Numbered from the stretch's first letter, positions 45,638-64,000 are shown. The stretch is DNA of 64,000 nucleotides from an uncultured Myxococcales bacterium (GCA_964633205.1 CAZWFN010000013.1:443-64442), one strand, 5' to 3'. A program made the numbers and translations. Notes: generated by a model from the sequence alone, not told the origin.

Positions 45638-45685
45638 CAAGGGGTCCTCCCGCTCCGCAGAGCCCGTCATTTCGGAGATTCAGTC

Positions 45686-48634: not shown

Positions 48635-48678
48635 CTTCCCTCCGTTCACCGTCAAGTGTGGACGATTGTTTCGCACAC

Positions 48679-48688
48679 AAAACGTTTT
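48679..48688. promoter_or_regulatory. perfect 10-bp palindrome AAAACGTTTT at the predicted transcription start
   Basis: It is immediately downstream of the -10 of the promoter at 48689..48716. Confidence 0.3.
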
Positions 48689-48716
48689 CTTATACCAGCG
48701 GGTCGAGGTATGTCAA
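48689..48716 (-). promoter_or_regulatory. strong sigma70-like promoter TTGACA-N16-TATAAG
   Basis: On the minus strand, TTGACA is at 48716..48711 and TATAAG at 48694..48689. GGAGG and ATG 48634 lie downstream. Confidence 0.45.
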
Positions 48717-48808
48717 AGTAGAATGCGTTCGGCGACCGGCTTGCCGCTGTGGCCAGCGACCGCCGTGGCGCGGACAGCGCGTCGGCTTCGGGTACACGAG
48801 GAGGCGAG

Positions 48809-51607
48809 ATGGTGCCGCGGATGGTCTGGTTGGCTTTGTTGCTCGGTTGGGCCGCGGGAGCGGCCGCGGCCGAACGCAAGCAGCAGCTATTGTCCAACGG
48901 GGGCTTCGAGCGGGGGTTGCAGGGCTGGCAGACGCGCGGTCTGAAGTTGATCGCGGATCCGCGGCTGGCCCACCGCGGGGTGCGCTGCCTGATGGGCGAG
49001 GTGTTTCGCCGCCGCCAGAACCGCACCTTGCACCGCAGCCTCGGGCTGCGCCGCGATCGGCTGTATCGCTTCGCCATCTGGGCCCGCGCCTCGCAGGGCA
49101 GCCGGTTGACGGTCTGGCTCAAGGCGGCCGGTCAGCGGCGGGTGATCGCCAACTGGCACGGGGTGGCCCGGCGCTGGACGCGCTATCGGGTCAACTTCAC
49201 CGTGCCCGCCGACGGCCGGGCCACGCTGGAGATCGCGGCGCCCTCGTCCTTCTGGGCCCGGGTGGGGCGCATGTGGATCGACGACCTGGTGCTGACCGCC
49301 GAGCCGCTGCTGCCACAGACCAAACTTTCCACCGAGCCGGGCTTCGACGACATGCCGTGCATGGCCCAGACCGGACCGAACGATGCCTGGGCGGCCTGGC
49401 TGCGGTCCAGCGGCGAGGGCGAGGAGCTGGCGGTGGTGAGGCTGCACCAGCCCGCGGCCGACGCCGACCTGGAGCTGGCCGATCGCTGGCAGGTGGCACC
49501 CCCGGCGGATGCCGGCGTGCTCGATCCGGTGCTGGCCGCCGGACCGGACGGCACCGCCTGGCTGGTCTATGCCGCCGAGAAGGGCGACAACTGGGATCTC
49601 TACGCCGTCGCCCTGGGGGCGGCCGGTCCGGGTCGGCCGCTGCGGCTGACCCGCCACCCGGCGGTCGACATCCACCCGGCGGCGGTGGTCGATGGCCGGA
49701 CCCTGTGGGTGGCCTGGGAGTCCAACCGCGACGGCGGCCGGCGCCACATCCACCTGCTGGCCGTGCGCGACGGCCAGGCCGGCCGGCCGTTGCGCTTGTC
49801 GCAGGGCGAGACCAACAACTACCAGCCCGATGTGATCCGGCCGGAGCGGGGCCGTCTGCTGGTCGGCTGGCACAGCTTTCGCGAGGACAACTTCGATCTG
49901 TACGCCCGCGAGGTGGTCGCCGGTGCGCTGCAGCCCGAACGCCGCCTGACCCGGGCCGCGCTGATCGACCGCGGCGTGCGGCTGTTGGCCCGCGACGGGC
50001 GGGTCTGGCTGGCCTGGGACCAGGCCGACTACGCCGGCTACAAGGTGGGCCGCAACAGTCTCAAGCGGGTGGTGGTGGCCCGGTTGGACCACGGCCGGCT
50101 GCGCCAGCCGGTTGGCTTGCGCCGGACGCGGCTGTGGCAGGAGGCCGAGACACCGGCGCTGGCCTTCGATGCTGACGGCCGGCTGTGGATCGCGGCGCTG
50201 GTGCCGCGCGATCGCAACTCGGGCTGGGATACGCTGGTCTGGCGCCTGGCCCGCAAGGGCTGGGCCGGGCCCTGGGTGCTGTCGCGGCGCAAGGGCATGA
50301 ACCGGCGCCCGGCGCTGGCCACCCCGGCCGGGCGGGTGGCGGTGCTGTATCAGAGCGACGACATGCCTGGGCGCTGGCGCTCCTACGAGGCGCGCCACCA
50401 GGGCGACAGCGACGTCTACCTGGGGCGCATCGACAGCGGCCCGCGGCCGCGCGGTGGATCGCTGAAGCTCGAGGCCTACGAGCCGCCGGCCGCGGTCTTC
50501 GAGGCGGCCCGGCTGCGCCGCGCCCGCGGCGAAGACAGACCGGGTTGGCAGACCGAGCTGGACGGCCGGCCGCTGCGGCTGCTGTTCGGCGACCTGCACG
50601 AGCACTCCGACCTGTCGGTCTGCGACCGCACCCGGGATGAGACCCCGGATCAGTCCTATCAGATGATGCGCGACCTGCTCCGGGTCGACTTCGGCGCCCT
50701 GACCGACCACGGCAAGAACTTCAACGATTATCTCTGGCGCCACCTGGGCAAGCGCAACCGCAGCAACAGCGATCCAGGGCGCTTTCTGACCTTGAAGGCC
50801 CAGGAGTGGACCTCGACCTTCGAGAAGGGCAACACCGACTACCCCTACGGCTACTACGGCCACCGGGTGCTGGTGTTCGGCGACGCCCGCGCGCCGCGGT
50901 TCTACAACGCGGCCGACGGGGACACGCCGGCGCAGCTGCGCCAGAAGCTGCACGCCGGCGGCGTGCCCTTCGTGCTGATCCCGCACCAGCTGGCCGACAC
51001 CGGCAACGTGCCGCTGGACTGGGCCGGCCACGACGAGGGCGACGAGCCGGTGGCCGAGATCTTCCAGTTCCGCGGCTCCTACGAGTGCAAGGGCTGCCCG
51101 CGCGAGGCCGAGCTGAGCACGCCGCGGGGCTGGTTCCTCCAGGATGCCTGGGCCCGCGGCACCCGGGTGGGGGTGGTGGCCGCACCCGATCACCGCGGCG
51201 GCCTCGGCAAGGCCGCGCTGTGGGCCGAGGATCTGAGCCCGCAGGCGCTGTTGGCGGCCCTGCGCGCCCGGCGCACCTACGGCACCACCGCGGCGCGCAT
51301 CCTGCTCGAGGTGCGGGTGGCCGGCCACTTGATGGGTGCCGCGGTCGAGCCGCTGGCCGCCGGCCAGACCGTGCCCATCAGAGTACGGGTCGACTGCCCG
51401 CGGCCCCTCCAGCAGGTGGTGGTGCTGCGCGACAACCGCCCGATCTTCCGCGTCCGGCCCCGTGGCCGTCGGGCGGATTTCACCTGGCGCGATAAACCGG
51501 CGGCCGGGGCCCACTGGTACTATGTGCGCGTGGTCCAGCGCGACGGCGAACTGGCCTGGTCGTCGCCGGTCTGGTTCGGCCGGCCGGAAGAGTCACCACC
51601 GCCCTGA
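48809..51607 (+). CDS. secreted CBM4_9-like domain plus about 7 propeller-like repeats plus a PHP/DUF3604-like phosphoesterase domain
   Basis: GAGGAGG precedes ATG 48809. 'NGGFERGLQGWQ', repeats such as 'DGRTLWVAWESNRDG' and 'DGRVWLAWDQ', then 'FGDLHEHSDLS', 'ALTDHG' and 'LIPHQ'. Confidence 0.65.
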   Translation: MVPRMVWLALLLGWAAGAAAAERKQQLLSNGGFERGLQGWQTRGLKLIADPRLAHRGVRCLMGEVFRRRQNRTLHRSLGLRRDRLYRFAIWARASQGSRLTVWLKAAGQRRVIANWHGVARRWTRYRVNFTVPADGRATLEIAAPSSFWARVGRMWIDDLVLTAEPLLPQTKLSTEPGFDDMPCMAQTGPNDAWAAWLRSSGEGEELAVVRLHQPAADADLELADRWQVAPPADAGVLDPVLAAGPDGTAWLVYAAEKGDNWDLYAVALGAAGPGRPLRLTRHPAVDIHPAAVVDGRTLWVAWESNRDGGRRHIHLLAVRDGQAGRPLRLSQGETNNYQPDVIRPERGRLLVGWHSFREDNFDLYAREVVAGALQPERRLTRAALIDRGVRLLARDGRVWLAWDQADYAGYKVGRNSLKRVVVARLDHGRLRQPVGLRRTRLWQEAETPALAFDADGRLWIAALVPRDRNSGWDTLVWRLARKGWAGPWVLSRRKGMNRRPALATPAGRVAVLYQSDDMPGRWRSYEARHQGDSDVYLGRIDSGPRPRGGSLKLEAYEPPAAVFEAARLRRARGEDRPGWQTELDGRPLRLLFGDLHEHSDLSVCDRTRDETPDQSYQMMRDLLRVDFGALTDHGKNFNDYLWRHLGKRNRSNSDPGRFLTLKAQEWTSTFEKGNTDYPYGYYGHRVLVFGDARAPRFYNAADGDTPAQLRQKLHAGGVPFVLIPHQLADTGNVPLDWAGHDEGDEPVAEIFQFRGSYECKGCPREAELSTPRGWFLQDAWARGTRVGVVAAPDHRGGLGKAALWAEDLSPQALLAALRARRTYGTTAARILLEVRVAGHLMGAAVEPLAAGQTVPIRVRVDCPRPLQQVVVLRDNRPIFRVRPRGRRADFTWRDKPAAGAHWYYVRVVQRDGELAWSSPVWFGRPEESPPP

Positions 51608-51626
51608 GCCGGAGTCTCTCGCCCGG

Positions 51627-53102
51627 CTACTGCATGTAGCCCAGCGACTGCAGCTCCTCGACCAGATCGGGATCCAGCTCGTCGACCTTCAGCGACGGTT
51701 TGCCGCCTTCGATCTCGGCCTTGAGCACGTGCAGCAGCTTCTCGCCGACCGGGCGCCGGTCGGGCCACAGGTTGCGCTTTTCGTGCGGATCGGCCAGCAC
51801 GTCGTAGAGCTGGAAGACCTCCTCGTCGAAGGAGACCGAGGGCAGCAGCTCGGGTCGGCCGACGTGCTTCATGAATACCTCGCGTACCGCTGGGCGCTGG
51901 TAGACCAGCTTGTAGCGCCGGGTGCGGATGGCCGAGCGGCGGATGCCGTAGCAGTTGTACTCGGAGATGACGTAGCGCGGCACCGGCACCGCCTTGCGCT
52001 GGCGCAGCGCTCGGGTCATGTCCAGACCGCTCATGGCGCCCGGTATCTTCGCCCCGGCCAGCGCCAGGGTGGTGGGGGCCAGGTCGATCTGCTGGACGAA
52101 GGCGGAGGTATAACCGCCCCGGGCGGATTTTTCGATCCAGGGAGCGCGGATCAGCAGCGGGATGCGCATGTGGGTCTCGTAGTGGTGGTGGGCGTGCAGA
52201 TAGACGCCGTGCTCGCCGAAGGCCTCACCGTGATCGGCGGTGACGAAGATGCTGGCCTCGTCCCAGAAGCCCAGCTTCTGGAGCTGGCCGAACAGCCGGG
52301 CCAGCTGGTCGTCGGTCGAGCGGATCAGGCCGTCGTAGAGCGCCACCACTTTTTTGCGCTGGGCCTCCGGGTAGTCGTTCTTGTATTCCCAGTGCACCCG
52401 GTGGCGCACCTTGCCCTCGTACTCCGGATAGTACATGTTGTCGTAGGGCGGTTTGGGCTTGTAGGGATCGTGGGGGTCGAGCAAGAACAGCAGCAGGAAC
52501 ACCTTGTCCTGGCCGCGGTGGCGCCGCAGGTGCTCGAGACCCAGATCGACGACCTGGCGGGCGTCGGGCAGGCCCTTCCAGTTGCCAATGGTGTCCTCGT
52601 AGACGTCGAAGCCGTGGTGCATGCCGAAGGCCGAGCTGATGTTGCCGTTGCCCACCACCGCCAGCGTGGTGTAACCGGCCTTCTTGAGCTGCCCGGCCAT
52701 GGTGCCGACCGACGCGGGCAGCTTGTGCCAGTCGCACTGTACGCGGTGCTCGGTCGGGATCAGGCCGGTGAGCATGCTGGTGGTCGCCGGCCGGGTCCAG
52801 GGGGCGTTGGCGAAAAAGCGGGTGAAGATCACCCCCTCGTCGGCGAAGCGGTCCAGGGCGGGGGTGGTGTCGCGGCCGTAGCCGTAGGCCGAGACGTGAT
52901 CGGGCCTGAGCGCGTCGACTACGATCCAGATGATCGGTTTTCCGGTCTCCGGGGCGGTGGCGGCCTCGGCGGGCACCGCCGGGCGCTCGAGCCCCGGGAA
53001 GTAGAGCGTGGCCGGCTCGTCGCCGGGCAAGACCTCGTCGGCGGTCGCGGCGGTCGAGCAGGTCATCGTCAGCAGCAGGCATCCCAGTACGATGCGTTTC
53101 AT
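51627..53102 (-). CDS. secreted sulfatase-fold (PF00884-like) enzyme with a Thr nucleophile context
   Basis: ATGA overlap with the upstream gene. 'IIWIVVDALRPDHV', 'NAPWTRPATTSMLTG' and 'FVTADHGEAFGEHG'. Ends in '...LQSLGYMQ'. Confidence 0.8.
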   Translation of the reverse strand: MKRIVLGCLLLTMTCSTAATADEVLPGDEPATLYFPGLERPAVPAEAATAPETGKPIIWIVVDALRPDHVSAYGYGRDTTPALDRFADEGVIFTRFFANAPWTRPATTSMLTGLIPTEHRVQCDWHKLPASVGTMAGQLKKAGYTTLAVVGNGNISSAFGMHHGFDVYEDTIGNWKGLPDARQVVDLGLEHLRRHRGQDKVFLLLFLLDPHDPYKPKPPYDNMYYPEYEGKVRHRVHWEYKNDYPEAQRKKVVALYDGLIRSTDDQLARLFGQLQKLGFWDEASIFVTADHGEAFGEHGVYLHAHHHYETHMRIPLLIRAPWIEKSARGGYTSAFVQQIDLAPTTLALAGAKIPGAMSGLDMTRALRQRKAVPVPRYVISEYNCYGIRRSAIRTRRYKLVYQRPAVREVFMKHVGRPELLPSVSFDEEVFQLYDVLADPHEKRNLWPDRRPVGEKLLHVLKAEIEGGKPSLKVDELDPDLVEELQSLGYMQ

Positions 53103-54481
53103 GGCCAATCCCTCTCCTGGGTCTCGAGCCCGAAGTGCTCCCGTATCAGCGGCGCGATCTCGAGGATCGACCGCACCTGCCGATGTTCGCTTTTCGGGCG
53201 GCCGGGGTCAAACCACAGGCAGATGCCCGCGGCGGAGTGGTTGGCGTCGTCCGGGCCGGTGTCGTTGCCCCGGGCGTGGATGCGGCCGCTGCCGACGCTG
53301 GCTGCGGCCCGCCAGGCCAGATCGCCGGGATAGGCGATCAGGTCCGGGGCCACGCCGCGCAGCTGCCGGTAGATGCGCTCCGGCCACAGCACCCGGGTAC
53401 CCAGCGGCTGGCCGGCCTCGTCGCCGATGGCTTCGAGCCGCTCGGCCAGTCCGGCCCGATAGGCAGCGTAGTCGGCCGCGGCCACCGCCCCGCGGGGCTC
53501 GCGGCCGCGGCGGTTGATCCAGATGCGGGCGTGGAAGCCGCCGTCGGCCCAGGCGCGGGTTCGCGCCCAGTCGACCATTTCCGGCCGCAGCGGGCCTGCC
53601 TGCACCGGCGCCTGGTGCAGGCACAGATCGCCCTGCTGGATCAGCCACTCGTTGATGTGCAGCGCACCCTGCATGGCGCGGCCGCCGTGATCGCTGACCA
53701 CCAGCACGGCGACGCCTTCGCCGGCGGCCTCGATCAGATCGGCCACCTGGCGGTCGAGCGCGGCATAGAAATCGGGGATGGCTTCGGCGTGTGGGCCGTC
53801 CGGCCGGTGCAGCCTATGGGCCGGATCGAAGTCGCGCCAGAAGCCGTGGTGCATGCGATCGGGGCCCATGTCCACCAGCACCATCAGGTCCCAGTCGGGC
53901 TCGGCGGCCCAGGCCCGGGCCACCCGGAAGCGGGCCCGGGTGACCGTGGTCACCTCGTGCCGCAGCCGCTCCTTGTCCGCGCTGCGGTAGCCCTCGACAT
54001 CGATGCGGTAGCCGCCCGGGCCGGCCAGCGCATCGAGCGCGGCCCGTTGCTCCGGCGGCCAGACGAAGGCCGACTCAGGCCCCGGGCTGAGAACGCCGGC
54101 CACCAGCCGGCCGCGCAGCGGCCAGGGCGGGTAGGTGCCCGGCACCCCGATCACATAGCTGGTCAGCCCGGCCCGGCTCAGTCCATCCCAGACCCAATCG
54201 GCCCGGATGCGCCGGGAGTCGACCAGCGCCGGCGAGCCGTAGCCGCGGTCGGCGCGCAGGCGAAAGCCATACAGGCCCAGCTCCCCGGGGTCGCAGCCGG
54301 TGAACATGCTGGCCCAGGCCGGCAGGCTGACGGGCGGATCGGTCGAGCGCAGCGGCCCGCCGCAGCCCCGCGCCGCCAGACCGTTCAGAAACGGCATCCG
54401 CCCGGCCAGCCGATCGAACACCAGGCTCGGCTCGGCGCCGTCGAGTCCGATCACCAGCAGGCGTGGGCGGGCGTCAGCGAT
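53099..54481 (-). CDS. alkaline-phosphatase-superfamily protein (NPP-like), apparently cytoplasmic; start codon unresolved
   Basis: 'LLVIGLDGAEPSLV', 'SLPAWASMFTGCDPGELGLYGF' and 'LVVSDHG'. Start candidates are ATC 54481 (10 nt after AGAGGAGG), CTG 54460, GTG 54454 and TTG 54526. Confidence 0.65.
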   Translation of the reverse strand: MADARPRLLVIGLDGAEPSLVFDRLAGRMPFLNGLAARGCGGPLRSTDPPVSLPAWASMFTGCDPGELGLYGFRLRADRGYGSPALVDSRRIRADWVWDGLSRAGLTSYVIGVPGTYPPWPLRGRLVAGVLSPGPESAFVWPPEQRAALDALAGPGGYRIDVEGYRSADKERLRHEVTTVTRARFRVARAWAAEPDWDLMVLVDMGPDRMHHGFWRDFDPAHRLHRPDGPHAEAIPDFYAALDRQVADLIEAAGEGVAVLVVSDHGGRAMQGALHINEWLIQQGDLCLHQAPVQAGPLRPEMVDWARTRAWADGGFHARIWINRRGREPRGAVAAADYAAYRAGLAERLEAIGDEAGQPLGTRVLWPERIYRQLRGVAPDLIAYPGDLAWRAAASVGSGRIHARGNDTGPDDANHSAAGICLWFDPGRPKSEHRQVRSILEIAPLIREHFGLETQERDWP

Positions 54482-54634
54482 GGCGGGTGCGCCTCCTCTT
54501 CGCGCGGAGCCGGATGGTGGACACAAGAAAACCTGGCGGTCAAGATCGGCTGCGCTTATACTGCGCCTCGCTAAGCGTGCAATGCACGCCGCGCCGCCGG
54601 CCGGGTGGCGGCCCGGCGGCACTCGGAGGCAGCG

Positions 54635-56383
54635 ATGGCAGGACCAGGCATGGAGCCTTACGGCGGCGAGCTCATCGTTCTGATCGCCGGCGCCGATCGC
54701 GTCGATGCGCTCAAGCAGGAGTCGCGCGACTGGCCGTCGTGGCAGCTCAGCCCGCGGCAGCTGGGCGACGTGGAGCTGCTGTTGACCGGCGGCTTCTCGC
54801 CGCTGACCGGCTTCATGGGCCGGCGCGACTACGACAGCGTGCTCGAGCGCATGCAGCTGGCCGACGGCACCTTCTGGCCGCTGCCGATCACGCTCGACGT
54901 CTCCGACGCGCTCGGCCGCAAGCTGCGCCCCGACGACCGGCTGGTGCTGCGCGATCTGTTCGGGGTGGCGGTGGCCGTGCTGCGGGTGACCGACGTCTGG
55001 CAGCCCGGGCTGACCCGCGAGGCCGAGCAGGTCTACGGCACCGACCGACCCGACCACCCCGGCGTGGCCATGCTGCGCGAGGGCACCCACTCCTGGTACG
55101 TGGGCGGGCCGGTCGAGGGTCTGGAGCGGCCCGAGCACTACGATTTCGCCGAGCTGCGGCCGACCCCGGCCGAGGTGCGTCGCCGCATCACCCAGCTGGG
55201 ATGGTCGCGCACGGTGGCCTTCGAGACGCGGCATCCCATGCACCGCGCCCAGCAGGAGCTGACCCTGCGGGTCATTCGCGACCTGGACGCCGGCCTGCTG
55301 ATCCAGCCCACCGTGGGCCAGACCAAGACCGGCGACATCGAGCACTTCGCCCGGGTGCGCTGCATCCAGGCGGTGGTGGGCCAGTACCCGCCGGAACGGG
55401 CGCTGTTGGCCTTGCTGCCCTTCACCAGCCGCCTGGCCGGGCCGCGCGAGGCGGCCCTGCTGGCCATCGCCCATCGCAACCACGGCTGCAGCCACTTCCT
55501 GGTCGGCCGCGACCACGCCGGCGCCGGTCGCGACGAGAAGGGCCAGCCCTTCTATTCGCCGGACGCCGCCCGCGCGCTGCTCGAGGCGCACGCCGCCGAG
55601 CTGGAGATCGAGCCGGTGGCCTCGCGCGAGATGGTCTACCTGCCCGAGCAACGGCGCTACGCGCCGCGCGACGAGGTGCCCGCCGGCGCGCAGGCCCTTT
55701 CCTTGTCGCCGGCCGAGCTGGCCCAGAAGCTCGAGCGCGGCGAGGACATCCCGGCCCACTTCTCGCACCCGGAGGTGATCGCCGAGCTGCGCAAGGCACG
55801 GCCGCCGCGCGCGCGGCAGGGCTTCACCGTGTTCTGCTCCGGACTGCCCTCGGCCGGCAAGTCGACCGTGGCCCAGGTGCTGATGATCCGCCTGCTGGAG
55901 ATCGGCGGCCGGCCGGTCACCCTGCTCGACGGCGACATCGTGCGCACCCACCTGTCGAGCGAACTCGGTTTTTCGCGCCACGACCGCGATCTGAACATCA
56001 CCCGCATCGGTTTCGTGGCCTCCGAGATCACCAAGAACGGCGGCGTGGCCATCTGCGCCCCCATCGCCCCCTATGACCGGGTGCGCAAGCAGGTGCGCTC
56101 CATGATCGTGCCCAAGGGCGGCTTCGTGCTGGTCCACGTGGCCACCCCGCTGGCCACCTGCGAGCAGCGCGACCGCAAGGGCCTCTACGCCAAGGCCCGG
56201 GCCGGGCTGATCGACGAGTTCACCGGCATCTCCGACCCCTACGAGCCGCCGCAGGACGCCGAGGTGGTGGTCGACACCGCCAGCCAGAGCCCGGCCGCCT
56301 GCGCCGAGACCATCCTGACCTACCTGCGCCAGCGCGGCTACCTGCCCGCCGGCGCGGCCGCCGACGAGTCGGGCGCCGGTTGA
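54635..56383 (+). CDS. sat/cysC: bifunctional sulfate adenylyltransferase / adenylylsulfate kinase (PAPS synthase)
   Basis: 'FETRHPMHRAQQ' and 'HFLVGRDHAG' (ATP sulfurylase). P-loop 'GLPSAGKST' and the C-terminal APS-kinase region. GGAGG is 5 nt before ATG 54635. Confidence 0.9.
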   Translation: MAGPGMEPYGGELIVLIAGADRVDALKQESRDWPSWQLSPRQLGDVELLLTGGFSPLTGFMGRRDYDSVLERMQLADGTFWPLPITLDVSDALGRKLRPDDRLVLRDLFGVAVAVLRVTDVWQPGLTREAEQVYGTDRPDHPGVAMLREGTHSWYVGGPVEGLERPEHYDFAELRPTPAEVRRRITQLGWSRTVAFETRHPMHRAQQELTLRVIRDLDAGLLIQPTVGQTKTGDIEHFARVRCIQAVVGQYPPERALLALLPFTSRLAGPREAALLAIAHRNHGCSHFLVGRDHAGAGRDEKGQPFYSPDAARALLEAHAAELEIEPVASREMVYLPEQRRYAPRDEVPAGAQALSLSPAELAQKLERGEDIPAHFSHPEVIAELRKARPPRARQGFTVFCSGLPSAGKSTVAQVLMIRLLEIGGRPVTLLDGDIVRTHLSSELGFSRHDRDLNITRIGFVASEITKNGGVAICAPIAPYDRVRKQVRSMIVPKGGFVLVHVATPLATCEQRDRKGLYAKARAGLIDEFTGISDPYEPPQDAEVVVDTASQSPAACAETILTYLRQRGYLPAGAAADESGAG

Positions 56384-56398
56384 GCAGGCGCCGGCCGA

Positions 56399-57109
56399 TC
56401 AAAAAATGTCCACCAATCCCAGCCCCGGGGCGGGCCGGGGCCGCAGCCGGCCGCGCTTCAGGCGCACGGCTGCCGCGCTGGGATCGCCGATCAGGTCCAG
56501 GTGGCCGTCGAGATCGGCGTAGATCACGTTCGGCCGCGCCAGGGCGAAGGCCAGCCCGGCCGCGATGGCCAGGGCGCATTCGTCCATGCAGCCCACCATG
56601 GATTCAAGCTCGGCGGCCCGCGCCACCGCGTCGATCTGCATCGCCTCGGCGATGCCGCCGACCTTCATCAGCTTGATGTTGATCATGTCGACCCGCTCGT
56701 GGCGGGCCAGCCGGTAGGCGTCGCCGAGCCCGCACAGGCTCTCGTCGGCCATCACCGGCAGCGGCAGTTGGCGGGTCAGCCGCCCGAGCAGGGCCATGTC
56801 CACCGCTGCCAGCGCTGCCGGGTGGGTCTTGCGCCGGGGCCGCAGTCGCTCCAGCAGCCGCACCGGCCGCAGCGGATCGCGCCGGCGCAGCGTATCGCCG
56901 GCGGCGGTCTGGATGAAGTCGAGGGCGGCGGACGGCGTCTCGCCTGTCACCGCCGGGTCGGGCGCGGCGCAGCCCAGCCCCACCAGGGGTCCGTCGGTGA
57001 CCAGGCGCAGCAGCACGTTGGTGGTGCGGTCGAACGTGGCGCCGGCGATGGTGTACGGCGTGGCCAGCTTCAGCTCGAGCGCCCAGGCTTCGATGCGTTC
57101 GATGCGCAT
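56399..57109 (-). CDS. enolase-superfamily protein (dipeptide epimerase/DgcA-like) lacking about 100-120 internal residues; possibly non-functional
   Basis: The N-terminal capping domain ('AAVDMALLG') runs directly into 'PVMADES...NIKLMKVGG...VGCMDE'. The KxK region and the first two metal-ligand regions are absent. 236 aa. Confidence 0.6.
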   Translation of the reverse strand: MRIERIEAWALELKLATPYTIAGATFDRTTNVLLRLVTDGPLVGLGCAAPDPAVTGETPSAALDFIQTAAGDTLRRRDPLRPVRLLERLRPRRKTHPAALAAVDMALLGRLTRQLPLPVMADESLCGLGDAYRLARHERVDMINIKLMKVGGIAEAMQIDAVARAAELESMVGCMDECALAIAAGLAFALARPNVIYADLDGHLDLIGDPSAAAVRLKRGRLRPRPAPGLGLVDIF

Positions 57110-57149
57110 GACGTCTCTCTCGGTCTCGCGTTCGCCCGAGAATCTCGGA

Positions 57150-59519
57150 TCAGTAGCGGCGCTGATAGATCTCGTCGAGGCTCAAGGCCTTGAGCTGCTC
57201 GACGAACTCGACCAGGTTGGACACCATGATCCGCCACATGCGCCGGCCCTTCTCGGCGGTGGCCCGGGTCGGATCGCCCAGCACACCACAGGGCGAGATG
57301 CGGGCGGTGCGGGCGTACCACTCCACCGAGCGCTTGGAGCTGAAGTCGAGGTAGCGCGAGGAGAACCGGGGAACGTAGCGGGCGGCGCGGTCCATGGCCA
57401 CCAGCTCGGGACGGGTGGCCAGCGAGGTGGAGGTCTCGATCTCGCCGGCGTGGACGTCGTCCGGGGTCTCGGTCAGGGCGACCAGGTCGGCATCCGAGGT
57501 CTCGCCGGTGTCGACACAGGTGAAGATGTGGGCCTCGGCGTTGATCATCTGGGCGGCGAACTTGAGCGCCGGCGCGTTGCCGCCGTGGCCGTTGACGATC
57601 ACCAGCTTGGTGATGCCGTTGCGGGCGGCGGCCATGCCCACGTCGTAGACCAGCTGCGACAAGCTGCCGGGCCGGATGCCCACTGTGCCGCGGAAGTCTT
57701 CGTGGTGGTAGGAGACCCCGTAGGGGATCAGGGGCAGCACCAAGGGCCGCGGTGGCCGGCAGGCCGCGGCCACCAGCCGGGCCAGCCGATCGGCATCGTA
57801 GGCGTCGGTGTCCAGCGGCAGATGGGGACCGTGTTGCTCCAGGGCCCCGACCGGCAGCAGGGCCAGATCCACCTCGGCCAGCCGGCGCTCGGCCTGCGGC
57901 CAGCTCAGCTCGGCCCACAGGTGCTCGCGACGGGCGGCCGGCGCGGCCGGCTGGCCGTCGCCGGCGGCGGTGTGGTGGGAGAACCGGTAGGGCTCGTAGA
58001 GCTCGCTGGCCGCCAGCGGATCGAACCCGTTCCAGACCCGGCCCACTCGGCGCACGGCGCCCGCGGCGTGTTGCAGCAGTATGCGCAGCAGGGCCGGGCG
58101 CAGGTCGGCCGGCAGGGTGTCGGGCGGGGAGCGCTCGGTGTCGAAGCGCAGGCTGAGCACCTCGGGTCGCTCGCGGATCCGGTGGCGGCCCAGGCGATCG
58201 GCGGTGATCAGCCCCCGCTGGCGCAGCGCGAAGCCGAGCTGCTGCACCGCAGCCGTCTCCTGGGCCACGCCGTCGCGCACCAAGCCGTCGAGGCACCAGG
58301 CCACCTGCGCCGGATCGTAGCCCAGCCCGCCGGGCTCGGCGCCCAGCGCCAGCAGCATGCCCACGATGCGGCGACATTTTTCACAGCGGCCGCAGGGAAG
58401 CACGCGGGCGTCCTCGGCAGCGGGCGTGCTCTGTCTACGCTTCTGCGGATGCGCCGCATGGCAAGAGACCTGCTGCGCCCACAGCTCCGGGTAGCGCTCC
58501 CAGATGGTCTTTTCGACCAGCAGCTCGCTGGCCGGACGCAGCAGCGAGAACTGGAGCACGGCGAAACGCTTGCGCTGGAAGTAGCGCGTCATGGCGTTGT
58601 CGAACCAGCGGCTCTGGTCGTAGAGACCGGCATAGTGGGTGATGCCGCGGGTGCTGCGGCGCACCGTGGTGTCGTGCTCGTCGCCGATGACCAGCCGGCC
58701 GATCCCCCGGGCCCGCAGCAGCGGCAGGGCGGCGAAGCTGAACACCGCAACCGTCCACAACCGCAGCGGGTAGTCGTCCGAGCGCAGCCGGGCGAAATCG
58801 GGCCGGATGAACGGCAGCCGGCGCAGCATCCAGGCGAACAGCCGGTCGGCGTTGGTCCAGACGCGGGCGGTCCGGGGACAGCCATGGCACAAGTAGCGGT
58901 AGGCGTTGAGTGCGGTCAACCAGTGGCGGCCGGACTCGTTGACGAAGATCGGGTGGACCTCGATGCCGAGCTCGCGCAGCAGGCCGTAGCTCAACAGGCT
59001 GTCTTTGCCCCCGGAGCTCAGCACGGCGGCCCGGGCGGGCTCGGTGTGCCAGGGCGGGAATTCGGCCCCGGCCGCAGCGGCCGGCGGCGCGAACTCCAGC
59101 CCGGCCACCCACTCCGGATCCCAGCCGGTGCTCTCCGGCAGAGCCGGGGGCGGGCGCAAGAAGGGGTTGGGCCGCAGCAGGCGGTTGACCCAGATTTCGC
59201 GGGCGCTGATCTGGAGCATCTCGGTCAGCAGCGTCCGGTCATCGGTGTCAAAGGCGCCGCGCAGCGCGATGTGTCGGCAGAACAAGCCGTAGTTCAGTGC
59301 CGGCTGGACACCGATCAGGCCGGCCAGGTTGTGGCTCCAGGAGGCTTCGGGATCGAGCACCGGCTCCTGCCAGCGGAAGGCCAAGTCGAAGCGCCGCTCG
59401 CCGTCGGCCTGCTGTACCCGGTAGGGCATGACCACCCGGTCGGTCTCGACCCGGGCCGGACCCACGGTCAGCCGATCGACGGCCACCCGCTCGCCCGCCG
59501 GCTCGGGTGGGGGCGTCAT
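57150..59519 (-). CDS. fusion protein: unknown N-domain, QueC/ExsB-like PP-loop ATPase, then a creatininase-family amidohydrolase
   Basis: ATG 59519 (ATGA overlap). PP-loop 'AVLSSGGKDS' (about aa 165-173), Cys motif 'CGRCEKCRR', and a C-terminal ~256 aa with 'LLPVGALEQHGPHLPLDTD' and 'VNGHGGN'. Confidence 0.7.
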   Translation of the reverse strand: MTPPPEPAGERVAVDRLTVGPARVETDRVVMPYRVQQADGERRFDLAFRWQEPVLDPEASWSHNLAGLIGVQPALNYGLFCRHIALRGAFDTDDRTLLTEMLQISAREIWVNRLLRPNPFLRPPPALPESTGWDPEWVAGLEFAPPAAAAGAEFPPWHTEPARAAVLSSGGKDSLLSYGLLRELGIEVHPIFVNESGRHWLTALNAYRYLCHGCPRTARVWTNADRLFAWMLRRLPFIRPDFARLRSDDYPLRLWTVAVFSFAALPLLRARGIGRLVIGDEHDTTVRRSTRGITHYAGLYDQSRWFDNAMTRYFQRKRFAVLQFSLLRPASELLVEKTIWERYPELWAQQVSCHAAHPQKRRQSTPAAEDARVLPCGRCEKCRRIVGMLLALGAEPGGLGYDPAQVAWCLDGLVRDGVAQETAAVQQLGFALRQRGLITADRLGRHRIRERPEVLSLRFDTERSPPDTLPADLRPALLRILLQHAAGAVRRVGRVWNGFDPLAASELYEPYRFSHHTAAGDGQPAAPAARREHLWAELSWPQAERRLAEVDLALLPVGALEQHGPHLPLDTDAYDADRLARLVAAACRPPRPLVLPLIPYGVSYHHEDFRGTVGIRPGSLSQLVYDVGMAAARNGITKLVIVNGHGGNAPALKFAAQMINAEAHIFTCVDTGETSDADLVALTETPDDVHAGEIETSTSLATRPELVAMDRAARYVPRFSSRYLDFSSKRSVEWYARTARISPCGVLGDPTRATAEKGRRMWRIMVSNLVEFVEQLKALSLDEIYQRRY

Positions 59520-60607
59520 GCAGCCGGCTCCAGCGCCGCCAAGGCCTGGCGCACGATCGTGGCCAGTCCCTGGGGGCCGTCCAGCAGCGGATCCAGTGCG
59601 GGCAGGCCGGTGGCGGCGTGGATGGCGGCGCAGGCGGCCCCCGTATCGGCCGGGGTCAACCCCTCGTGGTTGATGGCCAGCGCGATGACGGGGCTGTCGC
59701 TGATGGCGCGCACCGCTTGGAGCTGGCGCTCCAGCGGGTGGACCGGCCAACCGACGAAGCCGTCGTAGTCGCGCCGGCCGGGAGCGTGCTGCAGCACGAT
59801 CAGGTGGGGCCGGCCGGCCGCCAGCAGCTCGAAGCCGCCCGGATAGGCGGGATGCAGCAGGCTGCCCTGGCCCTCGAGCAGCATCAGCTCCGGGGCCCGC
59901 CGCTGCCAGGCCGACCAGATGGTGTGCTCGATCTCGCCGGCCACGAAGTCGTTGACCAGGGTGTCGATCAAGACGCAGCTGGGCGCGCCTTGCATCCAGG
60001 CCGTCTGGCCGGTGCCCACCAACTCGGCGCGCAAGCCGCCGGTGACCAGCGCGTCGCACAGCAGCCAGGCGGTGGTCCGCTTGCCGACCGCCGAGTCGGT
60101 GCCGAGCACGACCAGGCGGGGACAGCCAACCTGGGCGATCCGACCGTCGAAGAAGTGCAGCGCCGAGCGGGGCGGCGGCCGGCGTACGTCCAGCAGCGCC
60201 CCGCCGTGGCGCAGGGCCAGCCGGGCCAGTTCCGGATCGTCGCCCAGCAGATCGTGAAGGCCGCCGACAACCTGCAGCCCGTGCCGCAGGGCCTCGACCA
60301 CGAAAGGCCGGTGGGCGGGGGCCAGCCGCCCGCCGTCGGGCGCCACCCCGTAGACGAACACGGCCACCGCCGGCTCGCGGTCGGCCCCGGCCGCCAGGGC
60401 GGCTTCCAGATCGGCGACGATCGGAATGCCGGCCGGCCGGCCGTCGAGCACCTGGCCGGCGTCCCGGCCGGCGTGGCCGGGGTCGATCACGGCGGCGATG
60501 GGCCAGCGCAGCGAGCGGCGGACCAGCCCGTGGGCGGTCTTGCCGTTGCTGGTGTTGAAGGCGCCGGCGCAGAAGACCACGGCGGCGCCGCGGCGGGGAT
60601 TGTGCAT
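59516..60607 (-). CDS. DUF1611-family protein (DgcN-like)
   Basis: 'VLGTDSAVGKRTTAWLL...LVGTGQTAWMQG' is typical of DUF1611/COG3367. Confidence 0.8.
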   Translation of the reverse strand: MHNPRRGAAVVFCAGAFNTSNGKTAHGLVRRSLRWPIAAVIDPGHAGRDAGQVLDGRPAGIPIVADLEAALAAGADREPAVAVFVYGVAPDGGRLAPAHRPFVVEALRHGLQVVGGLHDLLGDDPELARLALRHGGALLDVRRPPPRSALHFFDGRIAQVGCPRLVVLGTDSAVGKRTTAWLLCDALVTGGLRAELVGTGQTAWMQGAPSCVLIDTLVNDFVAGEIEHTIWSAWQRRAPELMLLEGQGSLLHPAYPGGFELLAAGRPHLIVLQHAPGRRDYDGFVGWPVHPLERQLQAVRAISDSPVIALAINHEGLTPADTGAACAAIHAATGLPALDPLLDGPQGLATIVRQALAALEPAA

Positions 60608-60609
60608 GC

Positions 60610-61641
60610 TCAGTTCCGTCCGGTCACCACGACCGCGTAGCGATCCGGTGGCAAGGGGTGGCGCTGATGGTGCTCCAGCAGCACCAGCAGCCCGGCGGTC
60701 GAGGCCGGCAGCACGCTGAGCCCTTCGGTCTCGCGCAGCAACCGCGACGCCGCCCGCATGGCCTTGTCGCTGGCGTGCGCGGCCCAGCCGGCCGAGGTGT
60801 TCAGCGCGTCCAGGGCGGCGTCGCCGTCGAAGGCGTGCCAGTTGATCAGCGGTTCGTTGATCACCGTCTCGCGGATGCGGCCCGGATCCAGATCGTCACA
60901 GCGCCGGCAGTCGCCCAGGAAGGCCTGCACGATGGGATTTTTGCGGAAGGACGAGCCGGCCACCAGCCGCGGCAGGCGCGAGGTCTTGCCCCGGCGATGC
61001 AGGCTGACGAAACCGTGATGGATGCCGGCCAGGGTGGTACCGTTCGACACCGGCACCGCCACCGCGGCCGGTGCGTCGCGTAGCTCATCGTAGATCTCGT
61101 AGGCGATCTGGCCGTAGGCCCGAAGCTGTAGCGGGGTGTTGGCGCCGCCGGGGTTGGCATCGTAGATCTCTTCGGCCGCGGCCAGCGCACGCGAGCGGGC
61201 CACCGCCGCCTCATAGTCGCCGGGCACCCGCAGGATATCGGCCCCGCTGTGCTCCATCTCGGCGATGCGTCGGGTGTGGTAGCTGGCGGGTATCAGGATG
61301 CGGCAGCGCAGCCCGGCGCTGGCCGCGGCCGCTGCCAACGCCACCCCGTAGTTGCCGCAGGTGGCGGCGGTGATGGTGTCGAAGCCGCGGCGCAACGCGT
61401 CCATGGCCTGGGCATAGGCGATGCGGTCCTTCTGGGTGCCGCTGGGGTTGCCGCCCTCGAACTTCAGATAGATCTGGCGCAGACCGTAGCGGCGCTCGAC
61501 GTTGCGGGCCCGAGTAAGCGGGGTGTCGCCGATCTCGGAGTCGATCGCGTCCTCGAAGGCCTCGAGACGGGCGAACAGATCGCGTCGGAGATCCTCCGGC
61601 GGAAGCGGCGGCACGGGTTCAAGGTCGGGCGGCTCATCCAT
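60610..61641 (-). CDS. fold-type II PLP-dependent enzyme (threonine synthase/cysteine synthase superfamily)
   Basis: Lys context 'NPSGTQKDR', 'ATCGNYG' and 'VPVSNGTT'. ATG 61641 is 7 nt after GAGGAG. Confidence 0.75.
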   Translation of the reverse strand: MDEPPDLEPVPPLPPEDLRRDLFARLEAFEDAIDSEIGDTPLTRARNVERRYGLRQIYLKFEGGNPSGTQKDRIAYAQAMDALRRGFDTITAATCGNYGVALAAAAASAGLRCRILIPASYHTRRIAEMEHSGADILRVPGDYEAAVARSRALAAAEEIYDANPGGANTPLQLRAYGQIAYEIYDELRDAPAAVAVPVSNGTTLAGIHHGFVSLHRRGKTSRLPRLVAGSSFRKNPIVQAFLGDCRRCDDLDPGRIRETVINEPLINWHAFDGDAALDALNTSAGWAAHASDKAMRAASRLLRETEGLSVLPASTAGLLVLLEHHQRHPLPPDRYAVVVTGRN

Positions 61642-61675
61642 CGGGCAGCTCCTCGCGGCTGGCGCATCACCGCGC

Positions 61676-61691
61676 AGCAAGAGACATGCCA
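61676..61691 (-). promoter_or_regulatory. sigma54 promoter TGGCATGTCTCTTGCT
   Basis: The minus strand matches TGGCAC-N5-TTGCW at 10 of the 11 specified positions. It lies about 35 nt upstream of ATG 61641, in the 134-nt gap after the acyl-CoA synthetase gene. Confidence 0.5.
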
Positions 61692-61775
61692 ACCTGCCGC
61701 TGACAGCGGTGGCTGAAGCTCCCGCGGCAGCTCCTGCCCGGGGCCGTCCGGATGCGGGGCGGTTCGATGCGCTTT

Positions 61776-63932
61776 TCAGCGGCCGGTGTCGGGGCGTTGG
61801 GGGTGGAGCAGGATGCGGGCGTCGACCACCTGGCAGCCCTGCTCGTGGGCGATGACCGGGTTGAGATCCATCTCGCGGATCTCGGGGTAGGACTCGACCA
61901 CCTCGGACACGGTCAGCAGCGTCCGGCGCAGGGCCTTCTTGTCCACCGGCGGCCGGCCGCGGTAGCCGTCGAGCATGCGGGCCGAGCGGATCTCGTCGAT
62001 CATCAGGCGGGCCGAGCGGTTGGTGATGGGCAGCACCCGGAAGGCCACGTCGTGCAAGACCTCGACCATGATGCCGCCGATGCCGAACATGACCACCGGG
62101 CCGAACTGGTCGTCGATCTTGGTGCCGATGATCACCTCCAGCCCGTCGCGGGCCATGGGCGAGACCAGCACCCCGCGCAGGTCGGCCTCCGGGGCGTAGG
62201 CCCGGGCGCTCTCGATCACTTCCCGGAACTGCTGGCGGACCGCGTCGGCGCCGCAGACGCTCAGGCGCACCCCGCCGGCCTCGCTCTTGTGCAGGATCTG
62301 GGGCGAGACGATCTTGAGCGCCACGTCGCAGCCGAGCGCCTCGGCCGCGGCCACCGCCTCGTCCTCGCTGCCGGCCAGCGAGCCGCCGCCGACCGGGGCA
62401 CCGTGCATGCCCAGCAGCTGTTTGGCCTCGGGCTCGAGCAGCAGCTGGCGGCCCTCGCGCAGGGCCTGGTCGATGATGCGCTTGCCCTGGGCCCGGGCCT
62501 TGACCTCCCAGTTGAGCACGAAGTCGTTCTTGGCCTCGTAGCTCTGCAGGTAGGAGCCGTACTCGTCCAGCGCGTCGACGCACTTGCAGGCGATCTCCAG
62601 CGAGTCGTAGACCGGAACGCCGTAGTAGCGCAGCAGCGCCAGGGCGTGTGGCTGGGCGTGGTTGTAGAGCGAGTGGACCACCACCGGTTTCTTGGTCTCC
62701 CAGATTAGCTTGCCCAGCTGGTGGGCGGCGTCCTCTTCCGGGAAGCGCAGCCGCTCGGCGAAGCGGATGGAGTAGCCGCCGAACAGGCCCACTAGCAGCA
62801 GCCCGCCGATGCCGTTGTCCTGCAACAGCGCCCGGGCGCAGCGGGCGAATACGCGGGGGTCGGCGTCGGCCCCGCCGGCCACGTCGACCGGGTTGCGCAC
62901 GCTGGCCGCCTCCGGCAGCAGGGCGCGCAGCTTATTCTGGGTCTTGGTCGCCAGCGGTGGCACCTGCAGGCCGGCCTCGGTCAGCAGGTCGGCGGCGATG
63001 GTGGCGTGGCCGCCGCCGTCGGCCAGCACAGCCACCTTGTTGTTGCGCACCGGCGGCAGGCTGGCCAGCGCCTCGGCCACCGGGAACAGCTCGTCGGAAC
63101 TCTCGATGACCACGATGCCGGCGCGGCGGAAGGCCGAGCGGGCCACCTCGCTCATGCCGGCCAGCGCGCCGGTGTGCGAGCCGGCTGCGCGCTTGCCGGT
63201 GGCGGTGCGGCCGCTCTTGAGCAGCACCACCGGCTTGTGGCGGGTGGTGCGGTAGGCCTCCTGTAGAAAGGCCCGGCCGTCGCGCATGCCCTCGACATAC
63301 ATCAGCACCGCGCGGGTGGCCGGGTCCTCGCGGAAGAAGGCCAGGTACTCGTGGAAGCGGATGTCGGCCTCGTTGCCTACCCCGATGTAGTAGGAGAAGC
63401 CCTTCCGGCTCTTGATGCTGGCCTCGGTGATCAGGGTCAGCGCCATGTTGCCGCTCTGGGTCAGCAGGCCGATGTCGCCGGCCGGCACCCCGGTCAGCCC
63501 CACCAGGTTCAGCCCGCTGTGGACGTTGATTATGCCCGAGGTGTTGGGCCCGATCAGGCGCACGCCGGAGCGCTCTGCGGCCGCCACCATCTGCTGCTCG
63601 AGATCGCGGCCGGCCGCGCCGGTCTCGCCGAAGCCGCCGGCGATGACCACCGCGCCGCTGACGCCCTTGGCGCCGCAGTCGGCCAGGATGGCCGGGATGG
63701 ACTTGGCCGGGGTGGTGATCAGGACCATGTCCACCGGGCCCTCGACGTCGGTCAGCCGGGCGTAGCAGCGCAACCCCAGCACGCTGCGCTCTTTGGGGTT
63801 GACCGGGTAGATGGGCCCGTCGAAGCGCGAGTCCTGCAGGGTCTTGATGGCCTGGTAGCCGCGTTTGGTCACATTGCGCGAGGCGCCGACCACCGCCACC
63901 GAGCGCGGGTTGAGGACCTTGTCGAGCGACAT
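61776..63932 (-). CDS. ADP-forming acetyl/acyl-CoA synthetase (fused alpha-beta, NDP-forming family)
   Basis: CoA-binding 'VAVVGASRN', 'GPNTSGI', 'GSHTGALAG' and a C-terminal ATP-grasp domain. 718 aa. Confidence 0.85.
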   Translation of the reverse strand: MSLDKVLNPRSVAVVGASRNVTKRGYQAIKTLQDSRFDGPIYPVNPKERSVLGLRCYARLTDVEGPVDMVLITTPAKSIPAILADCGAKGVSGAVVIAGGFGETGAAGRDLEQQMVAAAERSGVRLIGPNTSGIINVHSGLNLVGLTGVPAGDIGLLTQSGNMALTLITEASIKSRKGFSYYIGVGNEADIRFHEYLAFFREDPATRAVLMYVEGMRDGRAFLQEAYRTTRHKPVVLLKSGRTATGKRAAGSHTGALAGMSEVARSAFRRAGIVVIESSDELFPVAEALASLPPVRNNKVAVLADGGGHATIAADLLTEAGLQVPPLATKTQNKLRALLPEAASVRNPVDVAGGADADPRVFARCARALLQDNGIGGLLLVGLFGGYSIRFAERLRFPEEDAAHQLGKLIWETKKPVVVHSLYNHAQPHALALLRYYGVPVYDSLEIACKCVDALDEYGSYLQSYEAKNDFVLNWEVKARAQGKRIIDQALREGRQLLLEPEAKQLLGMHGAPVGGGSLAGSEDEAVAAAEALGCDVALKIVSPQILHKSEAGGVRLSVCGADAVRQQFREVIESARAYAPEADLRGVLVSPMARDGLEVIIGTKIDDQFGPVVMFGIGGIMVEVLHDVAFRVLPITNRSARLMIDEIRSARMLDGYRGRPPVDKKALRRTLLTVSEVVESYPEIREMDLNPVIAHEQGCQVVDARILLHPQRPDTGR

Positions 63933-63933
63933 G

Positions 63934-64000
63934 TCAGCGCCCCTGGAAGCTCGGCCGGCGCTTCTCGGCGAAGGCGTCCAGGCCTTCCTGCCAGTCGGCG
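63934..64000 (-). CDS. 3' end of an enoyl-CoA hydratase/isomerase-family gene (partial)
   Basis: The minus strand reads '...DWQEGLDAFAEKRRPSFQGR*', the characteristic crotonase C-terminus. Confidence 0.5.
   Translation of the reverse strand, partial: ADWQEGLDAFAEKRRPSFQGR

Follow-up and report, generated by a model that had tools for sequence, protein, structure and literature searches.

Background

The PP-loop enzymes QueC, QatC and Cap9 adenylate a carboxylate and then hand it to ammonia or an amine, and synthesis of the osmolyte N-acetylglutaminylglutamine amide (NAGGN) uses Ngg, a protein with GNAT and ATP-grasp parts, together with the PP-loop amidotransferase AsnO. In the DgcN-DgcA system a DUF1611 N-acetyltransferase is co-encoded with a member of the enolase superfamily, to which the dipeptide epimerases YkfB and YcjG also belong, and the peptidase MftE is a member of the creatininase family. 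In the D-glutamate route of Xanthomonas, MurL, the partner of MurD2, is an ATP-dependent epimerase whose proposed route runs via an adenylated C-terminal glutamate (PMC8788868). Here we describe a four-gene cassette, built from relatives of these enzymes, in a 64,000-nucleotide stretch of DNA from an uncultured Myxococcales bacterium (GCA_964633205.1 CAZWFN010000013.1:443-64442; the whole stretch is hereafter called the window). Behind a near-consensus sigma54 promoter element it encodes a fold-type II pyridoxal phosphate (PLP) enzyme, a DUF1611 protein, a fusion of a PP-loop domain to a creatininase-family domain, and a shortened enolase-superfamily protein.

The resemblance to each of the described systems is partial. 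Like DgcN-DgcA, the cassette co-encodes the same two families, and an acylate-then-epimerise logic is plausibly common to both, but here the pair is split by the 789-residue fusion, is preceded by a PLP enzyme and is dispensable, and its epimerase is nearer to the dipeptide epimerases. The N-terminal domain of the fusion (the N-domain) has a consistent local similarity to MurL, for which an ATP-dependent activation of the alpha-carboxylate has been proposed (PMC8788868); unlike MurL, it is fused to an amidohydrolase and has neither a MurD2 partner nor a UDP-MurNAc context. It shares with the QueC, QatC and Cap9 proteins the SGGxDS PP-loop, a C-terminal Cys4 zinc site and the overall fold, but carries extra subdomains, has no match to PF06508 and has no 7-deazaguanine genes or defence partners nearby. 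As in NAGGN synthesis, the activities that recur around the N-domain family are N-acetylation, peptide ligation and PP-loop activation of a carboxylate, in an osmotic-stress-type context, a likeness of logic only, for which no homology is claimed; where that route has a glutaminase, the cassette encodes a PLP enzyme together with an epimerase and a creatininase-type hydrolase. Intact cassette epimerases keep the KxK motif, the second lysine and the DxD motif of YkfB and YcjG, whereas the LD-carboxypeptidase and gamma-D-Glu endopeptidase partners are missing, the position of Arg24 is held by Glu or Ala, and in the window the core of the protein is deleted. The fused hydrolase, finally, belongs to the same Pfam family as MftE and creatininase, keeps the metal-site motifs and has MftE as its top equivalog match, but it falls below the MftE cut-off, is fused to a PP-loop domain and is without mftABCDF genes. 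We found no paper in the literature searched that describes the cassette, and a 2026 survey of the QueC family makes no mention of creatininase or MurL.

In this study we follow up a prediction made from the window's sequence alone, which proposed an enhancer-dependent, undescribed cassette for tailoring or salvaging amino acids (D-forms included) or small peptides. A conserved operon supports that proposal, and no gene of the cassette could be mapped to a known separate pathway: the DgcN, DgcA and thrC models all score below their cut-offs and the N-domain of the fusion falls in no family. The components come from known superfamilies, and the cassette is most likely an amino-acid/peptide tailoring operon, so far as sequence can tell. 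More specifically, and with a probability of roughly 0.4, we propose that it directs the sigma54-regulated biosynthesis of a small N-acylated amino acid or dipeptide, possibly of D-configuration or capped by an amide, that serves osmotic or Mg2+ balance.

Results

A four-gene operon conserved across phyla

The open reading frame (ORF) listing and direct reading of the sequence agree with the operon anatomy first described, in gene order, spacing, strand and coordinates. The elements of the cassette and the gene upstream of it are as follows.

60610-61641, minus strand: fold-type II PLP enzyme, 343 residues (PF00291; ThrC-like subfamily, NCBIfam PRK06381)
59516-60607, minus strand: DUF1611 protein, 363 residues (PF17396 and PF07755)
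57150-59519, minus strand: fusion protein, 789 residues, PP-loop N-part and creatininase C-part
57930-59519, minus strand: N-part of the fusion, residues 1-530, QueC/MurL-like PP-loop ATP pyrophosphatase
57201-57914, minus strand: C-part of the fusion, residues 536-773, creatininase-family metal amidohydrolase (PF02633)
56399-57109, minus strand: enolase-superfamily ORF, 236 residues, shortened YkfB-like dipeptide epimerase of the MLE subgroup
61676-61691, minus strand: sigma54 element TGGCATGTCTCTTGCT, GG at 61690-61689 and GC at 61678-61677
61649-61654, minus strand: Shine-Dalgarno sequence GAGGAG, 7 nt 5' of the PLP-enzyme start, from direct reading
61776-63932, minus strand: ADP-forming acyl-CoA synthetase with CoA_binding, Succ_CoA_lig and ATP-grasp_5 domains

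The genes for the PLP enzyme and the DUF1611 protein are 2 nt apart, those for the DUF1611 protein and the fusion overlap by ATGA, and 40 nt separate the fusion gene from the enolase ORF, with a gap of 134 nt between the synthetase and PLP-enzyme genes. The four genes are also syntenic in relatives: comparison of neighbourhoods in 80 fetched loci shows the order PLP-DUF1611-fusion-epimerase to be kept in about 60 of them, from many phyla. A survey with one genome per species located the fusion in at least 554 of these genomes, which span more than ten phyla and include Acidobacteriota (Holophagae, Thermoanaerobaculia, Aminicenantes), Desulfobacterota, Planctomycetota, Gemmatimonadota, Latescibacterota, Zixibacteria, Calditrichota, Ignavibacteria and Eisenbacteria. 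Nearly all of these genomes are metagenome-assembled (MAGs), joined by the cultured Deltaproteobacterium NaphS2 with the full four-gene form, and most hosts come from sediment and anaerobic lineages that are uncultured. Database homologues number more than 2,800 for the fusion, about 60% identical over the full length, and more than 5,000 for the PLP enzyme, the closest among the matches listed being ~70% identical across phyla.

Departures from the four-gene form are themselves recurrent. Seven loci (L029, L043, L046, L053, L056, L080 and L084) hold a two-gene form of PLP enzyme and fusion, and because this form exists the DUF1611 protein and the epimerase can be regarded as a dispensable module, one that the window copy looks to be in the course of losing. 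In Thermococcus celer the PLP enzyme (40% identity to that of the window) and the DUF1611 protein (44%) are followed by a standalone N-domain (33%) and a GNAT; an uncultured archaeon has PLP enzyme, DUF1611 protein and N-domain and then MgtE; in Thermoplasmata DUF1611 and N-domain genes lie beside an EamA transporter gene; and in a Nitrosomonas MAG the N-domain precedes a Ddl-like ligase, a GNAT and a DapF-like epimerase. A separate irregularity was seen in a Holophagae MAG (L002, 8379-8906, on a contig shared with L021), where the PLP gene was called at 175 residues with the other three genes intact, either a partly degraded copy or a sequencing error.

A QueC/MurL-like domain fused to a creatininase-type domain

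The label "PP-loop::creatininase" that the 789-residue protein had been given proved right, with an invariant SSGGKDS motif in the N-part and PF02633 on the C-part. Residues 1-530 have no Pfam match, and no Pfam or NCBIfam model reaches its threshold there. In an alignment of 30 homologues of the N-domain the SSGGKDS PP-loop, the motifs NESGRHW and DQS, and the cysteines C353, C376, C379 and C382 are invariant, the four cysteines forming a predicted Cys4 zinc site. An AlphaFold2 model of the domain (pLDDT 87.8, pTM 0.89) has QatC, Cap9 and QueC as its best Foldseek matches in the PDB at probability 1.0, with target-normalised TM-scores of 0.66-0.70 against Cap9 and QueC, so that the PP-loop, the zinc-binding cysteine cluster and the fold of the QueC family are all present, while PF06508 is not matched. 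Beyond the QueC fold the domain has a novel N-subdomain of ~150 residues and a C-terminal helical region of ~130 residues; for the first 156 residues of the fusion no significant structural relative was found, the weak matches being to RNase H-like topologies (TM about 0.3, E > 1e-3).

The kinship with MurL is more local. All 30 members tested match the MurL model weakly (best E-value 2e-9), over model positions about 230-338 only, and the MurL equivalog NF041275 scores 19 bits with the window protein and 18-26 bits in ten members scanned individually against a cut-off of 700. No Mur ligase, MurD2 included, is encoded next to the fusion. A phmmer search with the N-domain returned 308 clusters among 1.84 billion representatives, including standalone proteins of 460-520 residues.

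The structural matches raise the idea of an anti-phage system related to QatABCD or to the type IV cyclic-oligonucleotide-based signalling system (CBASS), in which a QueC-like enzyme would conjugate a deazaguanine base to a protein. QatC and Cap9 are indeed the top structural matches of the N-domain, but identity to them is only 11-18%, the four cassette proteins have no PADLOC matches, and the QatA, QatB, QatD and CD-NTase partners were not found in the neighbourhoods. Stable synteny with metabolic enzymes across phyla and archaea, with transporters rather than defence islands as neighbours, points the same way, and we reject membership of QatABCD or type IV CBASS and consider a defensive role of any related kind very improbable.

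The C-part (residues 536-773) scores 231.6 bits with PF02633 against a gathering threshold of 31.3 and keeps the metal-site motifs EQHGPHLPLDTD, NGHGGN and HAGEIETS. It reaches 151 bits (151-168 across members) with the MftE model TIGR03964, whose cut-off is 172, and 97 bits with the creatininase model TIGR04448, whose cut-off is 235, scores that place it, within the creatininase family, apparently closest to the MftE peptidase.

One further architecture was encountered in the family. Protein P0245 (855 residues) joins a DUF1611 region (44-349) to a QueC/MurL-like N-domain (381-853) in one polypeptide, and is either a true Rosetta-stone fusion or the product of a one-base error at the overlapping stop and start codons.

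The PLP enzyme and the DUF1611 protein

The PLP enzyme matches PF00291 (PALP) with 189 bits and passes the cut-off of NF004996 (PRK06381, named "threonine synthase") with 404 bits against 266, but it fails the thrC model TIGR00260 with 97 bits against 167. Its motifs are GNPxGTQKDR, ATCGNYG and PVSNGTT, and the atypical lysine context "SGTQKDR" noted at the outset is present, as NPSGTQKDR. In alignment with solved threonine synthases SFKDR has become TQKDR, the ASTGNT loop ATCGNYG, and PVGNAGN has become PVSNGTT, and these replacements are invariant in 21 orthologues. Because the thrC model fails and the replacements are invariant, we place the enzyme in a distinct ThrC-like subfamily. With the score below cut-off and the canonical SFKDR and TGNT loops replaced, its identification as a threonine synthase is rejected; the name carried by NF004996 is a legacy label and, for this enzyme, a putative one.

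The DUF1611 protein has both expected domains, the Rossmann-like DUF1611_N and the P-loop DUF1611_C, with the Walker A-like motif GTDSAVGKRT, and its relatives in the PDB are 2g0t, 2obn and 7xrj. DgcN is its only named relative, and with the DgcN model NF041892 the window protein scores 143 bits and the L001 orthologue 154 bits against an equivalog cut-off of 480, values that speak for a homologue of DgcN and not an orthologue. Of the connection to DgcN and DgcA drawn in the original prediction, homology therefore stands, the two NCBIfam models being the best or near-best named matches, and orthology does not, both scores being far below the cut-offs.

An epimerase broken in the window

The intact epimerases of relatives form a YkfB-like clade. 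They match Bacillus subtilis YkfB (L-Ala-D/L-Glu epimerase, 1JPM) with E = 5e-70 and about 40% identity and also match other solved dipeptide epimerases, and a Thermotoga dipeptide-epimerase model outscores the DgcA model NF042940, with which they reach 149-162 bits (the window remnant 74 bits) against a cut-off of 400. The residue aligned with what we take, in role and in numbering, to be Arg24 of YkfB is Glu, Glu or Ala in the orthologues.

The window copy does carry the internal deletion that had been read from its sequence. Alignment with the full-length orthologues of L001-L003 (355-359 residues) shows a single in-frame gap of ~119 residues after "AAVDMAL", with the junction near 56788/56789. 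Lost with this segment are LKIKGG, which holds the KxK acid/base motif, and RFDANQG and IEQP, which hold the first two metal ligands, while MADES, NIKLMKVGG (the second catalytic lysine) and ADLDG (DxD) are kept; in domain terms the protein consists of MR_MLE_N and only positions 83-213 of MR_MLE_C. The signatures of an MLE-subgroup dipeptide epimerase, all present in the intact orthologues, are thus incomplete here, and with KxK and two metal ligands deleted the epimerase step is predicted to be genetically dead. For this reason the window copy would work, if at all, like the two-gene form of PLP enzyme and fusion. The shortening does not belong to the system as a whole: it is peculiar to the window, every complete copy elsewhere (about 60 orthologues) having 353-361 residues.

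No decay beyond the deletion is evident when the retained parts are compared with intact orthologues, the N-part being 45-49% identical to intact copies that are 45-63% identical to one another and the C-part 57-70% against 66-76%. Since the retained parts are about as conserved as those of intact copies, the deletion is either recent or an artefact of assembly.

A sigma54-type promoter element that recurs in relatives

The near-consensus sigma54 site reported at 61691..61676, in the gap that follows the synthetase gene, is there and is unique in the window. The element TGGCATGTCTCTTGCT is the sole match to TGGCAY-N5-TTGCW in the 64 kb, where 0.09 matches are expected, and departs once (T for C) from TGGCAC-N5-TTGCW. 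It is intergenic, has the GG/GC spacing of a sigma54 promoter, and lies upstream of the PLP gene with 36 nt between the GC of its -12 element and the ATG; a consensus scan of the region found no sigma70-like promoter. A cognate activator was missing from the window, where no activator motif (GAFTGA or the Walker motifs of bacterial enhancer-binding proteins, bEBPs) occurs anywhere in the 64 kb. In relatives, response-regulator-type sigma54 activator genes adjoin the cassette in 15-16 loci.

In relatives a site scoring at least 9/11 occurs within ~550 nt upstream of the PLP gene in 8 of 68 loci, compared with 4.8% of background windows. When the coding strand is scanned over the 3.5 kb upstream, 17 related loci show sites of at least 10/11; 10 of these loci have a bEBP activator gene nearby, and sites stand directly 5' of the first operon gene in, for example, L053, L084, L085 and L088. 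Because sites and activators recur in this way the window site is credible, and enhancer-dependent transcription appears to be a recurrent though not universal property of the cassette. No riboswitch or leader RNA was matched in Rfam, either in eight related loci at the gathering threshold or in window positions 50000-64000 at E <= 1.

These data also bear on whether unrelated genes have come together at the locus by accident, behind a sigma54-like sequence that is itself fortuitous. For the motif taken by itself chance has something to offer, as 9 of 100 shuffles of the window yield at least one such match somewhere. For the gene set the idea is refuted, and as an account of the whole we give it next to no weight: the order is kept in about 60 loci with stop and start codons that overlap or nearly abut, a DUF1611 region and an N-domain are fused in P0245, and the promoter recurs in relatives.

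Other sequence features were noted around the promoter. At 61711-61738, 20-47 nt upstream of the -24 element, there is an imperfect 17-nt palindrome (GGCTGAAGCTCCCGCGG / CCGCGGCAGCTCCTGCC), and a shorter palindrome, CCGCTGTCAGCGG, directly precedes the -24 element; each may be the binding site of a regulator or part of the terminator region of the synthetase gene. A second sigma54-like sequence with one mismatch, TGGCACAGCCGCTGCA, at 38885-38900 on the plus strand, is inside and antisense to an MttB-family gene and is probably fortuitous.

Genomic surroundings in relatives and in the window

Neighbouring genes were counted by clustering of flanking ORFs and by profile searches in about 85 non-redundant loci, many of them on short contigs. 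Mg2+ transporters (CorA, MgtE, CNNM) are encoded in 18 loci from several phyla, some inside the operon, and such a gene abuts the cassette in L012, L050 and L063. MscS channels are encoded in 11 loci and DUF2179 membrane proteins (YitT or UPF0316) in 20, where the DUF2179 gene frequently overlaps the stop codon with which the cassette ends. RimK/GshB-like ligases were found in 8 loci, Ddl-like ligases in 6, RimB-like proteases in 5 and HSP20 in 5, and L085 has capBC-like genes and a gamma-glutamyl hydrolase. The longest of these arrangements, in L088, runs ptsP(GAF-EI)-PLP-DUF1611-fusion-epimerase-YitT-RimB-like-7TM-transglutaminase-ATP-grasp, with a divergent activator gene and polyamine genes upstream, and its three-gene tail corresponds to RloABC, which has been tied to hypo-osmotic tolerance and polyglutamate cleavage (preprint, PMC11957051).

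Such neighbors suggest that the cassette could act on the C-terminus of a peptide or protein, the MurL-like domain adenylating an oligo-glutamate tail or carrier peptide (RimK products, S6) and the MftE-like domain trimming it, as an accessory of RimK/RimB or RloABC. MurL (PMC8788868) and MftE (by its NCBIfam names) both act at peptide C-termini, in L004, L063, L088 and L041 the genes immediately behind the cassette are RimB and RimK or rloABC-like, and triads of GshB-like, QEGLA and FGase genes flank it in 5 loci. Yet Rim and Rlo neighbors are confined to a minority of loci and absent from the window, the similarity to MurL is local and weak, and the PLP enzyme and dipeptide epimerase need small free substrates. 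Clustering of ORFs of 30-130 residues, moreover, found no carrier or scaffold peptide beside the cassette, no conserved small ORF adjoining it, and a single small beta-rich family, non-adjacent, in 10 loci and not in the window. Taken together, we think this account unlikely.

The small beta-rich protein (80-110 residues, sometimes with a signal peptide) is encoded 1.5-3 kb upstream of the cassette in those 10 loci, for example at L006 4716-4961, L008 6270-6539, L023 4782-5060 and L030 2304-2630, in delta-proteobacterial and Desulfobacteraceae MAGs. Several unrelated lineages have polyamine-synthesis genes (pyruvoyl arginine decarboxylase, agmatinase, deoxyhypusine-synthase-like, AdoMet decarboxylase, agmatine deiminase) no more than a few kb away from the cassette or from its archaeal form (L088 1-2580, L092 13071-14001, L085 843-2114), and agmatinase-like ORFs also lie near it in L042, L061, L079 and L081.

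The recurrent neighbors of relatives (Mg2+ transporters, MscS, DUF2179, Rim/Rlo and activators) are all absent from the window, where the cassette is flanked by sulfatases, phosphodiesterases, MttB-family methyltransferases and sat-cysC. The acyl-CoA synthetase is a neighbor and not a part of the cassette; as a conserved partner it was rejected, being near the cassette in only two other loci, L001 and L024. On the other side, the bifunctional sulfate adenylyltransferase/adenylylsulfate kinase gene sat-cysC (54605-56383, plus strand) is convergent with the enolase ORF. Farther away are two MttB-family (trimethylamine methyltransferase-like) genes (37804-39345 and 40204-41724, minus strand) followed by genes for a DUF362 Fe-S protein (41770-43002), a weak GCS2-like carboxylate-amine ligase (43008-44363) and an aldehyde dehydrogenase (44348-45670), which may form a cluster for demethylation of quaternary amines or osmolytes. 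A run of alkaline-phosphatase-superfamily genes (45817-54538) comprises a phosphodiesterase/sulfatase (45817-47553), a sulfatase (51627-53108) and a phosphodiesterase (53099-54538), and includes a gene for a 952-residue CBM_4_9/DUF3604-like protein (48749-51607).

Discussion

A proposed biosynthetic route for the cassette

In the biosynthetic route that we propose, the ThrC-like PLP enzyme would supply an amino-acid building block by beta- or gamma-replacement or elimination, to judge from its fold and its kept Lys-PLP motif. The DgcN-like DUF1611 protein would N-acylate this building block, as its homology to the N-acetyltransferase DgcN suggests, and the YkfB-like epimerase would invert the alpha-carbon of a residue with a free carboxylate, a role suggested by the KxK, lysine and DxD residues of intact copies, which share 40% identity with dipeptide epimerases of solved structure. 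The N-domain of the fusion would use ATP to adenylate a carboxylate or a lactam oxygen, like QueC, QatC, Cap9 and MurL, and the activated group would either be converted to an amide with ammonia or an amine or be epimerised. The fused MftE/creatininase-like domain might then hydrolyse an amide bond, for unmasking, for delivery of a nucleophile or for recycling of the product, and in relatives the product may be moved by the DUF2179 membrane protein or by MscS, neither of which is encoded in the window.

A pointer toward biosynthesis is the company kept by the N-domain, whose recurring partners are an N-acetyltransferase (DgcN-like or GNAT), an epimerase (enolase-type or DapF-like) and an ATP-grasp peptide ligase. 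We favor the biosynthetic route because this set of partners shares the logic of NAGGN synthesis.

Several observations weigh against it. Every chemical step is drawn from superfamily membership, and each family of neighbors is found in only 10-25% of loci. The window itself contains neither rpoN nor a sigma54 activator gene, and the deletion that breaks its epimerase could be an assembly artefact. The steps also fit one another imperfectly: because the residue aligned with Arg24 of YkfB is Glu, Glu or Ala, a C-terminal glutamate is an unlikely substrate for the epimerase, and the DxD motif suggests a free N-terminal ammonium, as in a dipeptide, which is awkward beside an N-acetylation step. 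Lastly, a sigma54 promoter, an NtrC-type activator and ptsP fit the scavenging of nitrogen as well as they fit biosynthesis.

That last point leads to a possible alternative, which we hold to be nearly as likely as the biosynthetic reading: salvage under nitrogen limitation, the cassette importing a D-amino acid, a D-residue peptide or an oligo-glutamate peptide and converting it to an L-amino acid and ammonia. The DUF1611 protein and the epimerase would invert the substrate via an N-acyl intermediate in the manner of DgcN and DgcA, the creatininase domain would deacylate it, deaminase or lyase activity would come from the PLP enzyme, and the PP-loop domain would use ATP to drive a step that is otherwise unfavourable. 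Two of the cassette's genes have DgcN and DgcA as their nearest named relatives; YkfB, the enzyme closest to the epimerase clade, recycles murein peptides; and nitrogen control classically involves sigma54 promoters, NtrC-type activators and ptsP. Permeases and other membrane proteins adjoin the cassette (AA_permease with YkuD in L084, YitT in several loci), and RimB-like, Peptidase_C26, FGase and QEGLA peptidases are nearby. An identity of 60-70% across phyla, however, is unusual for a peripheral catabolic operon, and ATP-consuming activation of a carboxylate is seldom needed in catabolism. The two-gene and archaeal forms, which lack the inversion module or have a GNAT and a peptide ligase, look biosynthetic, and the linkage to MscS and Mg2+ transporters goes unexplained by salvage.

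A wider and more tentative claim can also be made. The cassette may represent a new pathway that ranges from Thermococcus to Desulfobacterota, Acidobacteriota and Planctomycetota, with a new QueC/MurL-like class of carboxylate-adenylating enzyme and a bacterial MftE-like fusion, and that makes an N-acyl, D- and/or amide-capped solute for osmotic or Mg2+ balance, co-regulated with CorA/MgtE, MscS and polyglutamate systems.

Significance

Identity of 60-70% across phyla reflects a level of constraint that is usual only in core metabolism. The broken epimerase of the window, together with the natural two-gene forms, offers an evolutionary test of which steps are essential, and the cultured organisms NaphS2, with the four-gene form, and Thermococcus celer and its relatives, with the archaeal form, provide handles on the system. 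Solving the product would annotate thousands of genes now called "threonine synthase", "creatininase" or DUF1611 and would define a new PP-loop branch related to QueC and MurL, and it could reveal a new solute or D-amino-acid chemistry tied to magnesium and osmotic homeostasis.

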